Source of the DNA: a virus | Taxonomy: Duplodnaviria > Caudoviricetes | IMG/VR virus record: IMGVR_UViG_3300015608_005401 | Coordinates: 10,686 to 74,685 of that record | DNA length: 64,000 bases | Reading direction: 5' to 3' (one strand) | Shown here: one piece after another, positions 10,502-63,382 of the stretch | How the letters are laid out: every line of letters starts with the position of its first letter | Numbering within the stretch: position 1 is the first letter of the stretch | Position numbers and translations under genes: made by a program | The notes under the pieces: model-generated | What the model was told of the DNA's origin: nothing | Databases searched by the model: none | What the model saw: only the letters and a program-made list of their open reading frames with translations

Positions 10502-10617
10502 ACAAGAGTGGCGGAAACAAACATTTTGCTAGTGAAGTGTTAATAGTAGACGTGACCTGATTAAAGGGTTGATTGATAGGTAACTAAATCGTGTTGGTGC
10601 GAGTCCAGCCTCTTGTA
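10502..10617 (+). tRNA. atypical Leu-type tRNA, D-loop hairpin insertion, ambiguous anticodon (TAA or TTA)
   Basis: ACAAGAG/CTCTTGT stem, A73, GGCGGAA..GTAGACG Leu-type D region, long variable arm, T-arm GTTGG-TGCGAGT-CCAGC. Confidence 0.55.
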
Positions 10618-10620
10618 CAA

Positions 10621-37729: not shown

Positions 37730-37828
37730 ATGAGAACAAATCGCACACATAAACATTTTAGTAAATCGAATAAGTGGTTTAGAAACCAGTTCGGTACTGA
37801 AAGTGTATTGCTCTCAAATAAGATGTAA
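37730..37828 (+). CDS. attenuator leader peptide L1 (MRTNRTHKHFSKSNKWFRNQFGTESVLLSNKM)
   Basis: Codons 7-17 are 8/11 His/Lys/Phe/Trp, matching the downstream tRNAs. Confidence 0.8.
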   Translation: MRTNRTHKHFSKSNKWFRNQFGTESVLLSNKM

Positions 37829-37986: not shown

Positions 37987-38044
37987 CCTTGATTTTTTTT
38001 GACTTTTGATTTTAATATATAAAGAAATCAAAAGTCAAAAAAAA

Positions 38045-38686
38045 ATGAAAAAAGAAAAAGTAAGGTATTACTTCTTATATAAGACTACCAATAAAATGAA
38101 TGGTAAATTTTATATAGGAGTACATAGTACAATAAAAATGAATGATGGGTATTTAGGATCCGGTAAAAGACTTAGATACTCGATGAGAAAATATGGAAAG
38201 GAGAATTTTGAAATAGATATATTAGAATTTTTCAATAGTAGAGAACTTATGTTTGAAGCTGAGAGAAACCTTGTTAATACTGATTTAATTAAAAATGAAT
38301 TATGTATGAATTTAAAAGAAGGTGGTATTGGTGGGTGGACAAAAGAACAACAAATAGAGAATGCTAATAGATCTAATATTAAAAAGAAAGAATTGAGAGA
38401 TAATAATCCAGAATGGAGAGGGCTTGAAAAGATAAGAAATTCAGAAAATATGAGAAAATCATATGAGAGAGGAGATAGAGAAAAAAAGCAACCTATGGAT
38501 TGGACTGGTAAAAGACATAAAAGGGAGACTATTCAGAAAATGAAAAAATCCAAAAATGTTGGTAAATTAAACTCTCAATATGGTACAAAGTGGATTAATA
38601 AAGATGGTATTATTAAAAAAATAAAAGAAAATGAACTTGAATATTATCTGAACAATGGATGGATTCAAGGTAGAAAAGGAACCTAA
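38045..38686 (+). CDS. GIY-YIG (Seg-like) homing endonuclease
   Basis: LYKTTNKMNGKFYIGVH..GYLGSG; HKRETIQKM NUMOD3-like; stop codon overlaps tRNA-Phe. Confidence 0.85.
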   Translation: MKKEKVRYYFLYKTTNKMNGKFYIGVHSTIKMNDGYLGSGKRLRYSMRKYGKENFEIDILEFFNSRELMFEAERNLVNTDLIKNELCMNLKEGGIGGWTKEQQIENANRSNIKKKELRDNNPEWRGLEKIRNSENMRKSYERGDREKKQPMDWTGKRHKRETIQKMKKSKNVGKLNSQYGTKWINKDGIIKKIKENELEYYLNNGWIQGRKGT

Positions 38687-38843: not shown

Positions 38844-38913
38844 GAGGGGATAACATAATGGTAGTGTACCGGGCGGAAAACCGGTAGTGTTAGTTCGATT
38901 CTAGCTCCCTTCA
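38844..38913 (+). tRNA. Phe-like tRNA with an 8-nt anticodon loop (GCGGAAAA)
   Basis: GAGGGGA/TCCCTTC stem; D and T arms intact. Confidence 0.55.
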
Positions 38914-38921
38914 CTACAAAT

Positions 38922-39226: not shown

Positions 39227-39895
39227 ATGAAAATTTTAGATAACCTTGATATATCTGATATTCAGAGAAAACTGAATGAGTCTAAATCATTTAGAGAGTT
39301 TCTATTAAAAATAGGATCTTCATCTAATGGGTCTGGTTCATACAAATCTATTAAGAATCAATTAATTAAATTAGGAGTTATAATTCCTGAGTTTAATTAT
39401 GAGAATAAAAATAAAATTAGTAAAAAAATTGATGATGTTGATGTTTTTATAAAAGGTTCTTTTTATAGTAGACAAAGATTAAAAGAAAGAATTATTAAAA
39501 ATAAACTAATTGATTACAGATGTGAGGAATGTGGAAATGATGGCGATTGGAATGGTAAAAATCTAAGCTTACATCTTGAACACAAAAATGGAGTTAATGA
39601 TGATAATAGATTAGAAAATCTAACATTCTTATGTCCAAATTGTCACTCACAGACCGAAACTTATAGTGGTAAAAATAGGAAGAAAAAAGAAAAAAGAAAG
39701 TGTGAGTGTGGTAGAGAAATATTCAAAACAAGTAAAATGTGTTTAGATTGTAACTCTATAAAAAATAGAAAAGTTGAAAGACCGTCAATTGAAAAACTAA
39801 AAGAAGAAGTTGTTGAGTTTGGATATAAAGCTATTGGTAGAAAGTATGGTGTTAGTGATAACACAATTAGAAAATGGATTAAAATAAAAAAGTAA
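39227..39895 (+). CDS. HNH homing endonuclease
   Basis: CEECG..LHLEHKNGVNDDNRLENLTFLCPNCHSQT; C-terminal HTH YKAIGRKYGVSDNTIRKW. Confidence 0.88.
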   Translation: MKILDNLDISDIQRKLNESKSFREFLLKIGSSSNGSGSYKSIKNQLIKLGVIIPEFNYENKNKISKKIDDVDVFIKGSFYSRQRLKERIIKNKLIDYRCEECGNDGDWNGKNLSLHLEHKNGVNDDNRLENLTFLCPNCHSQTETYSGKNRKKKEKRKCECGREIFKTSKMCLDCNSIKNRKVERPSIEKLKEEVVEFGYKAIGRKYGVSDNTIRKWIKIKK

Positions 39896-39982
39896 AAATT
39901 AGATTAAGAAAATGAAAAGTAAGTTGAAATATAAACGCTAGGCAACGACCAATTGAGAGGGGTCGTTGCCATTAAAAACAAT

Positions 39983-55629: not shown

Positions 55630-55703
55630 TATTTTTTTTATATTTGTAAAATAATTGAAAAGGGAGCTAAACTTTTTAATATATACACATACAATAAAAA
55701 CAT

Positions 55704-55775
55704 TGCGGGGTAGAGCAGAGGTAGCTCGCAAGGCTCATAACCTTGAGGCCGTTGGTTCGATTCCAACCCCCGCTA
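55704..55775 (+). tRNA. tRNA-Met(CAT), initiator-like
   Basis: 1:72 mismatch, AGAGCAG..GGTAGCTCG D region, loop CTCATAA; has its own promoters and no leader ORF. Confidence 0.85.
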
Positions 55776-55793
55776 CAAAAAAATTAAAAAAGA

Positions 55794-55825
55794 TTTGGTA
55801 GATTAAAAAAGTCTACATATCTTTG
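55794..55825 (+). promoter_or_regulatory. Bacteroidota sigma-type promoter of tRNA operon 3
   Basis: TTTGG..TATCTTTG. Confidence 0.7.
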
Positions 55826-55859
55826 TAAAAGAAATAAGAAACGAATAAAAATTATAACA

Positions 55860-55937
55860 ATGACAACTATTACTAACATAGCGTATTATTATGAGGGTGA
55901 GCAAAGCTCAAACGTCAGACTAATGTCTATGTCGTAA
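55860..55937 (+). CDS. attenuator leader peptide L3 (MTTITNIAYYYEGEQSSNVRLMSMS)
   Basis: TAT TAT TAT GAG GGT GAG core, upstream of Glu and Tyr tRNAs. Confidence 0.8.
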   Translation: MTTITNIAYYYEGEQSSNVRLMSMS

Positions 55938-55959
55938 TGGTGTCATTATGATATTAACT

Positions 55960-55996
55960 AACCCAGTCTGACTTATCAGACTGGGTTTTTTGTTTT
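55960..55996 (+). terminator. attenuator terminator T3
   Basis: AACCCAGTCTGA-CTTA-TCAGACTGGGTT then TTTTGTTTT. Confidence 0.9.
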
Positions 55997-56013
55997 AAAG
56001 TTCTTTGAAAATT

Positions 56014-56100
56014 GGGAGTATAACGTCAGCGGCATGTTAGAGCCGCCCCTGAACAAATAGACGTATAGAGGTAACTTGTGTGCAAATCCAGGTACTCCCA
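56014..56100 (+). tRNA. tRNA-like element lacking a conventional D-arm; 8-nt loop ATGTTAGA
   Basis: GGGAGTA/TACTCCC stem, GTGCAAATC T-loop-like segment, ACGTC/GACGT helix enclosing the anticodon arm. Confidence 0.45.
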
Positions 56101-56107
56101 CAAATAT

Positions 56108-56179
56108 GGTCTCGTCGACTAATGGTCAGGTCACCACCCTTTCAAGGTGTAGATGCGGGTTCGATCCCCGTCGAGACTA
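56108..56179 (+). tRNA. tRNA-Glu(TTC)
   Basis: Loop CTTTCAA, canonical cloverleaf. Confidence 0.9.
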
Positions 56180-56186
56180 CAAATAT

Positions 56187-56272
56187 GCTACGGTATGCAA
56201 ACCGGAATAAGCAACCAGACTTTCAATCTGGACATCGAAAGATGTGTGCGGGTTCGAGCCCCGTCCGTAGTA
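56187..56272 (+). tRNA. long-variable-arm tRNA with a TTC (Glu) anticodon
   Basis: GCTACGG/CCGTAGT stem, A73, CCAGA-CTTTCAA-TCTGG, ACATC-GAAA-GATGT variable arm. Confidence 0.8.
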
Positions 56273-56279
56273 CAAATTT

Positions 56280-56362
56280 GGGGATGATGTGACACAGGTA
56301 GTTACACTGGTCTGTAAAACCAGAGCCTTCGGGCGTTGTGGGTTCGAGTCCCAGCCCCACCA
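56280..56362 (+). tRNA. tRNA-Tyr(GTA); 3' side about 3 nt short
   Basis: CTGGT-CTGTAAA-ACCAG, variable arm GCC-TTCG-GGC, ends in CCA. Confidence 0.7.
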
Positions 56363-56365
56363 AAT

Positions 56366-56438
56366 GATGCCATCGACTAACGGCTGAGGTCATCACCCTC
56401 TCAAGGTGAAGATACGGGTTCGAATCCCGTTGGCATTA
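56366..56438 (+). tRNA. tRNA-Glu(CTC)
   Basis: TCACC-CTCTCAA-GGTGA. Confidence 0.9.
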
Positions 56439-56547
56439 CAAATACCTATATTAAAATGGCAAGACCTTTCGATTATAACCCAAGTGGTGCTACAATTTCA
56501 GGTTGTATTTGAAAATAATAATTTAACTACTTTAATTTATAAAAATA

Positions 56548-56616: not shown

Positions 56617-56697
56617 ATGACAAAAGTAAATAACATAGGAATAGCGATTATAGGAGGCGGCGCGGGAGCGTATGTCACTGGCTGGAGTATGTTGTAA
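56617..56697 (+). CDS. attenuator leader peptide L4 (MTKVNNIGIAIIGGGAGAYVTGWSML)
   Basis: 12 consecutive Ile/Gly/Ala codons, upstream of Ile, Ala and Gly tRNAs. Confidence 0.85.
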   Translation: MTKVNNIGIAIIGGGAGAYVTGWSML

Positions 56698-57067: not shown

Positions 57068-57117
57068 CTGAGTAAGGGGTGTCGAACTTTTTAATATATA
57101 ATATTAAAAGGATAGAT

Positions 57118-57864
57118 ATGTTGCACATAATTTATAAAATTACAAACCTAAAAAATGAAAAAATATACATAGGTAAACATTCATGTGAAGACATTAATGA
57201 TGAATATATGGGTAGTGGTAAACTTATAAAAAGAGCAATAAAAAAATATGGAATAGAAAATTTTAAAAAAGAAATTCTTTATACTTTCTATGACGAGATC
57301 GAAGCATATAAAATGGAAAAAAATATAGTAAATGAAGATTTTATAAAAAGAAAAGATGTATATAATGTGATAATTGGTGGGGATCCATTCGAATCAATCA
57401 ACTCAAATGTTGAACTCAGAAAGGAGAAAAATAGAAGAGCAGTCATATCGATGAATAAAATAATATGGAATGATGAAGGAGAAAATAATAAAGAAAATGT
57501 TTACAAAAGTAAACTAAAATGGGTGGGTAAAAATCCACATATAATTTCTTGGAGAAATTTATTAAAAAATAGTCTAAAAAGACTAAATACTAACAAAGGA
57601 TCATCAACAATTAATCTATTAGGATATAGCGCAGAGGATTTAAAATATCATATATCTAGTTTATTTACACCAGGAATGAGTTGGGAAAACTACGGAGAAT
57701 GGCACATCGATCATATAAAACCAGTTTGTTCATTTGATTCTAACACCCCAGTTAGTATTGTCTGTGCTTTATCTAATTTACAACCTCTATGGGCAACAAC
57801 AAGAGAAATAGATGGTATTATCTATGAGGGAAATTTAAATAAAAACAAATTTTATCAAAATTAA
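57118..57864 (+). CDS. chimeric GIY-YIG plus HNH-type endonuclease
   Basis: IIYKITNLKNEKIYIGKH..YMGSG N-terminus; MSWENYGEWHIDHIKP..LSNLQPLW C-terminus. Confidence 0.7.
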   Translation: MLHIIYKITNLKNEKIYIGKHSCEDINDEYMGSGKLIKRAIKKYGIENFKKEILYTFYDEIEAYKMEKNIVNEDFIKRKDVYNVIIGGDPFESINSNVELRKEKNRRAVISMNKIIWNDEGENNKENVYKSKLKWVGKNPHIISWRNLLKNSLKRLNTNKGSSTINLLGYSAEDLKYHISSLFTPGMSWENYGEWHIDHIKPVCSFDSNTPVSIVCALSNLQPLWATTREIDGIIYEGNLNKNKFYQN

Positions 57865-63009: not shown

Positions 63010-63117
63010 ATGACAACAATGAATTTAAATATGAACATGAATCTAACAGTGGTGCTTAATACGTTATGTATTAGACGCTCTGAGGGCTTCGTCATATCTA
63101 AACGATTTGTTGGCTAA
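63010..63117 (+). CDS. attenuator leader peptide L5 (MTTMNLNMNMNLTVVLNTLCIRRSEGFVISKRFVG)
   Basis: Five Asn codons upstream of two tRNA-Asn genes; ATT and AGA codons match the Ile(GAT) and Arg(TCT) genes. Confidence 0.8.
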   Translation: MTTMNLNMNMNLTVVLNTLCIRRSEGFVISKRFVG

Positions 63118-63291: not shown

Positions 63292-63376
63292 CGGTAGGTA
63301 CCCGAGCGGTCTTCAGGGACTAGTCTGATACACTAGGTGAGAAATCACGACGTGGGTTCAAATCCCACCCTACCGA
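63292..63376 (+). tRNA. long-variable-arm tRNA with a GAT (Ile) anticodon
   Basis: CGGTAGG/CCTACCG stem, A73, CTAGT-CTGATAC-ACTAG, GTGA-GAAA-TCAC variable arm. Confidence 0.8.
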
Positions 63377-63382
63377 CAACAT

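Follow-up and report, generated by a model that had tools for sequence, protein, structure and literature searches.

The short open reading frame ahead of a Glu/Tyr tRNA operon in the analysed window (64 kb of a 74.7-kb, AT-rich phage contig) is probably, with an estimated probability of about 0.75, the leader of a ribosome-mediated transcription attenuator, of the leader-peptide type known from trp and his operons, that would gate the phage tRNA genes behind it. An earlier note had read the locus in this way, and the computational evidence, namely codon-tRNA matching, leader-terminator complementarity, frame-preserving indels, invariant switch segments and ribosome footprint geometry, supports that reading. 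Sequence anatomy, conservation, codon matching and the thermodynamic feasibility of the switch were all established directly from the sequences and their folds.

Anatomy of the Glu/Tyr unit

The leader region and terminator comprise the following elements:

55851-55881, + strand: 5' strand of helix P1 (predicted anti-antiterminator), including the AUG and the conserved TAACATAG; from MFE folds and pair counts
55860-55937, + strand: leader ORF, ATG start, 25 codons plus stop, kept in 22 of 22 distinct homologues
55884-55901, + strand: regulatory codon run TAT x3, GAG, GGT, GAG (codons 9-14, YYYEGE), the last six codons of the predicted antitermination-permissive zone
55914-55921, + strand: putative antiterminator segment S2, GTCAGACT, exact complement of AGTCTGAC (55965-55972) in the terminator 5' arm
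55926-55953, + strand: 3' strand of helix P1, predicted from folds to be replaced in the ON state by an inner hairpin at about 55929-55954
55960-55987, + strand: intrinsic terminator hairpin with a 4-nt loop on a 12-bp stem (6 G-C pairs), separating leader ORF and tRNA genes
55988-55996, + strand: terminator U-tract, from the sequence

The codon content described in the earlier note, three consecutive TAT and two GAG codons, was confirmed at codons 9-14. Tyr and Glu together account for 12% of the codons in the long ORFs of the contig, and the probability that 24 random phage codons contain at least five Tyr/Glu codons in some six-codon stretch is P = 0.0019. The 8-nt perfect pairing of S2 with the terminator 5' arm, likewise proposed in that note, can be read directly from the sequence and stands. 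Compared with dinucleotide shuffles, the leader-to-arm duplex of the unit has p ~0.03, and the fold of its leader region reaches a z-score of -8.3 against shuffles. In the homologue alignment, 98% of the cells of the terminator stem are paired. A search of public sequencing runs listed no RNA run with this phage, and contigs from four DNA runs provided almost no cover or usable variation across the leader.

Three further elements lie upstream of the leader:

55676-55685, + strand: TTAATATATA motif, taken in the earlier note for a phage-type promoter, before tRNA-Met; from a motif scan
55704-55776, + strand: tRNA-Met(CAT), with no leader ORF ahead; from tRNA gene calls
55794-55825, + strand: Bacteroidota-type promoter (TTTG box, spacer, TAnnTTTG box); from a motif scan, with homologous promoters in relatives

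The order tRNA-Met, promoter, Tyr/Glu leader is conserved in the relatives examined. In the window's other four units the TTAATATATA motif is additionally present 6-8 nt before the ATG; it is absent directly upstream of the Glu/Tyr leader, both in the window and in all 22 aligned homologues. The claim that this operon has only the host-type promoter therefore holds for the immediate upstream region and is incomplete beyond it: a TTAATATATA motif lies 180 nt upstream of the leader, preceding tRNA-Met, no terminator was found between it and the leader, and judging from this arrangement it is a possible second source of transcripts, entering the leader by read-through. The promoter spacer itself (55797-55819) contains an inverted repeat that is changed on both sides between lineages, with the versions GGTAGA..TCTACA, GGTGG..CACC and GGTGAAAT..ATTTCACC among the window and the homologous promoters of L001-L005; from its sequence, this repeat may be an operator or a hairpin.

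Downstream of the terminator, the leader is followed by tRNA genes only, and no biosynthesis, transport or synthetase genes are found among them:

56013-56101, + strand: tRNA-like remnant with a Tyr-type acceptor stem, from its fold and comparison with the Tyr genes of relatives; called by neither tRNA finder
56108-56180, + strand: tRNA-Glu(TTC), from tRNA gene calls
56187-56273, + strand: 87-nt tRNA with anticodon TTC and a long variable arm, present in most homologous operons
56283-56362, + strand: Tyr(GTA)-like tRNA with weak acceptor stem and D-arm, found by ARAGORN at lowered threshold only and below the Rfam cut-off
56366-56439, + strand: tRNA-Glu(CTC), from tRNA gene calls

The earlier gene list was thus recovered for Glu(TTC), the long-arm TTC tRNA and Glu(CTC), the Tyr(GTA) gene being a weak, low-threshold call. 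Since only 4 of the 7 acceptor stem pairs of the latter are formed, this gene may be degenerate in the present contig.

The long-arm TTC tRNA was also considered as a recoding tRNA derived from tRNA-Tyr, tRNA-Leu or tRNA-Ser, a reading that was not adopted, its identity to these (about 40-50%) being no closer than to other tRNAs. Long-arm Lys, Asn, Ile, Thr, Met and Gly tRNAs likewise occur in these phages, where many tRNAs of anticodon families that normally have short arms bear long, hairpin-forming variable arms, often with a GAAA-type loop. In the window the two sites are 56187-56273 (Glu TTC) and 63292-63377 (Ile GAT); long-arm Lys, Asn, Thr, Met and Gly tRNAs were seen in the relatives L006, L008, L012, L014 and L020. 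Two further anticodons were noted: in L049 (JACCDX011346135.1) a tRNA with a CTA anticodon, which reads TAG, stands among the Glu/Tyr genes after the Tyr/Glu leader, and a tRNA-like gene with a TTA anticodon was called at low threshold at 10528-10618 of the window.

Homologues and paralogous units

Two pattern scans and BLAST, applied to IMG/VR and to freshwater, marine and wastewater metagenomes, yielded 22 distinct homologues of the Glu/Tyr unit; the second search pattern specified neither S2 nor the terminator. Chance pattern matches with no ORF, terminator and tRNAs (L026, L027 and about half of 46 metagenome loci) were set aside. The nearest public DNA to the window belongs to two uncultured huge phages, LR745206.1 (635 kb) and LR756502.1 (642 kb).

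The S2 segment, GT(C/T)AGAC, and CCAGTCTG are kept in 22 of 22 homologues, and the single C-to-T change in S2 still pairs. Between these switch segments, the codon core is the least alignable part, with the variants YYYEGE, YYYEEE, SYESYYEEG, GYTGYEGAYSE, RGYEAYEY and IGYYEGE, in which Tyr and Glu contribute 33-60% of the codons against the 12% background. All lengths of core and spacer (32, 35, 41 and 47 nt) leave a remainder of 2 on division by 3, which keeps the frame intact. In one lineage, a 1-nt insertion after S2 alters the peptide tail and the stop codon while the nucleotides remain conserved. A reshuffled core in a preserved frame between conserved ends argues that selection maintains the codon content of the leader's central part and the RNA of its ends, and not the peptide sequence. 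The same data bear on the idea that the ORF encodes a functional micropeptide whose transcript is merely ended by the terminator. Its N-terminal motif (M-T/N-T-I-T-N-I) and C-terminal residues are indeed conserved in most homologues, which speaks for such a product; these conserved ends, however, fall on strands of the RNA helices, the central residues differ in order from lineage to lineage with only the composition kept, and the altered C-terminal frame of one lineage left the nucleotides in place, which makes a micropeptide very improbable.

Returning to the attenuator reading, Glu and Tyr tRNA genes are present in all 21 homologues with enough downstream sequence. Within the Glu/Tyr family 96.5% of the cells of the S2:arm pairs are paired, four pairs are invariant and three have changed on one side only. 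Two-sided covariation was sought in these pairs within the family and none was found, the pairs being nearly invariant; because they hardly vary, covariation neither supports nor opposes the helix, and the sequence support for it comes from conservation and from the paralogous families described below. As to the suggestion that Glu(CTC) is matched specifically to the GAG codons, GAG is indeed the minor Glu codon of the phage (26% of Glu codons), and both Glu codons of the window's leader are GAG. The homologues, however, use both Glu codons irrespective of Glu(CTC): GAG occurs where the listed downstream tRNAs lack Glu(CTC), and GAA also where they include it. A specific GAG-CTC link was not upheld.

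Five units of the same build are present in the window, with ORF starts at 37730, 42162, 55860, 56617 and 63010. The window and the tRNA regions of three related huge phages, four related genomes in all, were scanned automatically for terminators with an ORF of 10-50 codons ahead of them and a tRNA no more than 200 nt behind, and 25 units were returned. They fall into seven families:

His/Phe/Trp/Lys
Arg/Ser
Glu/Tyr
Ile/Gly/Ala
Asn/Leu/Met/Thr/Val/Ile
Pro/Asp
Gln

Nearly all amino acids are divided among the seven leaders in exactly the way in which the tRNA genes are grouped. When leaders were scored by the share of their codons readable by the anticodons of each operon, the true leader-operon assignment was the unique best permutation in every genome (1/120, 1/5040, 1/5040 and 1/720). 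Ranking of the duplexes between each leader and its own terminator arm against permutations gave 1/120, 1/5040, 5/5040 and 5/720, and since the terminator arms differ between families, this leader-arm matching acts as covariation across paralogues. For the Glu/Tyr leader taken singly, the duplex with its own arm (-12.0 kcal/mol) is not uniquely best, the arm of unit 5 giving -12.2 kcal/mol. Matched codons are enriched in the permissive zone over the 25 units (odds ratio 3.0, pooled p = 1e-9), and in the Glu/Tyr unit they occupy 5 of 13 codons inside the zone and 0 of 11 after it. Because of the relatedness of the four genomes, neither the permutation tests nor the pooled test can count as independent replication. 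For unit 5 (63010-63117), whose leader is rich in Asn, Leu, Met, Thr, Val and Ile codons, the window ends after about four tRNAs; the expectation that matching genes continue beyond this point was borne out in L008 and L014, in which the same leader is followed by about 20 tRNAs of exactly these amino acids.

These comparisons also bear on a simpler account, in which the hairpin is no more than a constitutive terminator or insulator, or the structures serve as processing signals, and the short ORF is untranslated with a coincidental codon content. Short ORFs are plentiful in AT-rich DNA, and single units are of modest significance, as the p ~0.03 of the Glu/Tyr duplex illustrates. A strong constitutive terminator between promoter and tRNA genes would, however, silence the latter, and coincidence would have to extend to codon matching that is the unique best permutation in four genomes, to indels of a hypervariable core that all keep the frame, and to matched codons placed where a stalled ribosome would matter. 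We regard this account as distinctly unlikely.

Some peculiarities of the other units may be recorded here. The leaders of units 2 and 4 favour codons that are rare in the genes of this phage and readable by the downstream tRNAs: unit 2 (42162-42236) has the Arg codons CGC and CGA, instead of the phage's usual AGA, before Arg(ACG), and unit 4 (56617-56697) has three GCG (6% of Ala codons) and three ATA codons before Ala(TGC) and Ile(TAT). G+C-rich RNA stems could explain part of this preference. Between the His and Phe genes, at 38844-38914, ARAGORN called a tRNA with a four-base anticodon (GGAA), possibly a degenerate tRNA-Phe, possibly one that reads a frameshift. In relatives, the Lys genes of unit 1 directly follow Trp, whereas in the window an HNH-endonuclease ORF (39227-39895) lies in between; at 39913-39975, a nine-codon mini-ORF with four Lys codons precedes a G+C-rich hairpin devoid of a U-tract, and three tRNA-Lys genes follow. 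Homing-endonuclease-like ORFs in or beside the tRNA operons comprise this HNH ORF, a weak GIY-YIG match at 38006-38686 and a SegE-type GIY-YIG ORF at 57079-57864, each located just after a TTAATATATA motif, one of the motifs being just inside the called ORF.

Predicted switching and proposed mechanism

Folds of the nascent RNA, ending at the terminator loop, were computed with the 27 nt under a ribosome masked. With the ribosome at codons 1-14, 7 of the 12 terminator-arm bases are predicted to pair upstream with S2, and at codons 15-25 only 0-5 of them are paired and the arm is freed. The predicted fold thus switches at codon 14/15, a result of thermodynamic modelling only, and the modelled permissive zone ends exactly at the last regulatory codon of the Glu/Tyr leader. 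Without a ribosome, P1 (55851-55881 with 55926-55953) is predicted to form around S2, with the AUG buried in it and the arm left free.

For stalls at codons 9-14, the antiterminator fold is computed at -23 to -27 kcal/mol; at codons 9-12, the constrained alternative reaches -15 to -19 kcal/mol, about 8 kcal/mol worse. At equilibrium without a ribosome, the P1 fold (-32.3 kcal/mol) and the antiterminator fold (-32.2 kcal/mol) are nearly equal, and the RNAalifold consensus contains, in place of P1, a local hairpin in which S2 is paired with a nearby GUCUAUG. Given these near-equal energies and this local hairpin, the modelled switch must rely on kinetic, co-transcriptional folding. The S2/GUCUAUG hairpin was also considered as the anti-antiterminator itself and rejected, being about 8 kcal/mol worse than the antiterminator fold for stalls at codons 9-12.

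From these folds we infer that the leader is translated, that its translation is coupled to RNA polymerase, and that the unit responds in vivo along the following lines. Transcription would begin at the Bacteroidota-type promoter, with read-through from the tRNA-Met unit as a possible additional source of transcripts. A ribosome would then start the 25-codon leader while RNA polymerase proceeds, transcription-translation coupling in the host being assumed. If Tyr and Glu codons are decoded slowly, a stall at codons 9-14 would make the P1 5' strand unavailable and leave S2 (GUCAGACU) free; free S2 would pair with the emerging terminator 5' arm around the inner hairpin, the terminator would be blocked, and the Glu/Tyr tRNAs would be transcribed. 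If decoding is fast, the ribosome would cover S2 and reach the stop codon, the terminator would form, and transcription would end at 55988-55996. If the leader is not translated, P1 would form, enclose S2 and bury the AUG, which would again lead to termination. The product is the very set of tRNAs being tested, so the arrangement would constitute a negative feedback loop holding the decoding capacity for these codons, and under this model the phage probably makes these tRNAs only when Tyr/Glu codons are read slowly.

The same RNA switch could instead report amino-acid starvation or general translation stress through a low charged fraction, and not tRNA abundance, with tRNA output simply following the stress. 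Classical attenuators such as trp and his sense charged tRNA, and a stalled ribosome cannot distinguish a missing amino acid from a missing tRNA. Extra tRNA does not, however, relieve an amino-acid shortage, so the feedback would be lost. The exact correspondence between the amino acids divided among the seven leaders and those of the tRNA genes behind them also speaks against a starvation signal, as does the choice of CGC/CGA in unit 2, which suits the Arg(ACG) behind it rather than the usual AGA and points to codons and tRNAs as what is monitored. A starvation signal is accordingly considered unlikely.

Relation to known systems and implications

Leader-peptide attenuators control amino-acid operons in Proteobacteria (trpL, hisL, pheL, leuL, and the multivalent thrL and ilvL). 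With these the Glu/Tyr unit would share a short ORF, a regulatory codon run, mutually exclusive anti-antiterminator, antiterminator and terminator helices, and termination as the default; its leader mixes codons of several amino acids, as do thrL and ilvL, and it is predicted to terminate when the leader is untranslated, as in the trp and his attenuators. It differs in that the regulated genes are tRNA genes and not biosynthetic enzymes, so that the product acts directly on the sensor, and in that it is phage-borne, with a putative Bacteroidota host, has no similarity to these attenuators at the sequence or Rfam level, and buries its start codon in P1. No match at gathering score was obtained to the T-box or to curated Rfam leader families such as Trp_leader, His_leader, Phe_leader and Thr_leader; one example of the sub-threshold, chance-level hits was the trpB motif, which scored 29 bits where the cut-off is 59 (E = 0.79).

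T-boxes work without a ribosome, through direct binding of uncharged tRNA. A comparable riboswitch in the phage leader would likewise let tRNA status set the choice between terminator and antiterminator ahead of translation-related genes, here tRNA-related genes, and it is this resemblance that recommends the idea. Yet neither the T-box nor any other Rfam family is matched even with E up to 1, and a run of several codons in a preserved frame fits translation better than a single specifier codon, so direct tRNA binding appears highly unlikely. As a ribosome-dependent attenuator, which is the reading preferred here, the Glu/Tyr leader would differ from T-boxes in mechanism as well as in sequence.

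Leader-peptide control of translation genes is represented by pheM-pheST in E. coli, which governs aminoacyl-tRNA synthetase genes. In bacilli, a His leader precedes hisS paralogues (PMC2965389). In those cases, as in the one proposed here, a leader with many codons for one amino acid controls a translation gene for that amino acid; those leaders act on protein genes, whereas here the tRNAs themselves, in whole multi-species blocks, would be gated. A full-text literature search found no account of tRNA genes under leader-peptide attenuation. Huge phages of the Mahaphage clade, with predicted Bacteroidetes hosts, and genomes carrying up to 67 tRNAs have been described (Al-Shayeb et al. 2020; PMC7162821), and tRNA regulation is not mentioned in the excerpted text of that study.

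The premise of the earlier note that tRNA-Tyr is a target of retron-associated defence has been published: one study (PMC11555353) reports that expression of retron-Eco7 PtuAB leads to tRNA-Tyr degradation and that the tRNA-Tyr gene of T5 protects against it. [quoted passage not shown] By analogy with T5 and retron-Eco7 PtuAB, a phage-encoded tRNA-Tyr could replace host tRNA destroyed by defence; unlike in the overexpression case, the tRNA genes here sit behind a putative demand-sensing switch. It is conceivable, as a tentative proposal built on this analogy, that the leaders are codon-specific alarms for the loss of host tRNAs, forming an inducible and self-limiting counter-defence with seven sensors covering nearly the whole code. 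An anticodon nuclease, PtuAB-type degradation of tRNA-Tyr or phage-induced tRNA decay would then deplete one tRNA species, ribosomes would stall on exactly the matching leader, and only the matching block of replacement tRNAs would be switched on.

If the attenuator reading is true, cis-regulatory logic would for the first time have been described for phage tRNA genes, and no earlier case was found in which leader-peptide attenuation controls tRNA genes. Phage tRNAs would be made on demand, and the speed at which the codons of a block are decoded would feed back on that block. This bears on why phages carry tRNAs at all, be it for codon-usage compensation, replacement of degraded host tRNA or escape from tRNA-targeting defence. 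The leaders would state in plain sequence which codons the phage monitors, and could provide compact codon-specific sensors for synthetic biology.

A cultured phage-host pair has the same design, which makes the proposal bench-testable. The genome of Cellulophaga phage phi17:2 (NC_021798.1, 145 kb, host Cellulophaga baltica) contains three leader-terminator-tRNA units of this kind, together covering nearly all amino acids:

L074 6311-6379: first phi17:2 unit
L074 7271-7354: second phi17:2 unit
L074 8830-8928: third phi17:2 unit

The leader of the first unit is followed by Pro, Glu, Gln, His, Leu, Leu and Arg genes, which between them read every one of its codons 4-14. The attenuator reading would also imply corrections to the annotation of this phage: the second leader is annotated as the hypothetical protein gp077, which covers it and has its start codon inside the promoter (a wrong start), and the small hypothetical protein gp078 overlaps a tRNA-Ser gene called by ARAGORN.
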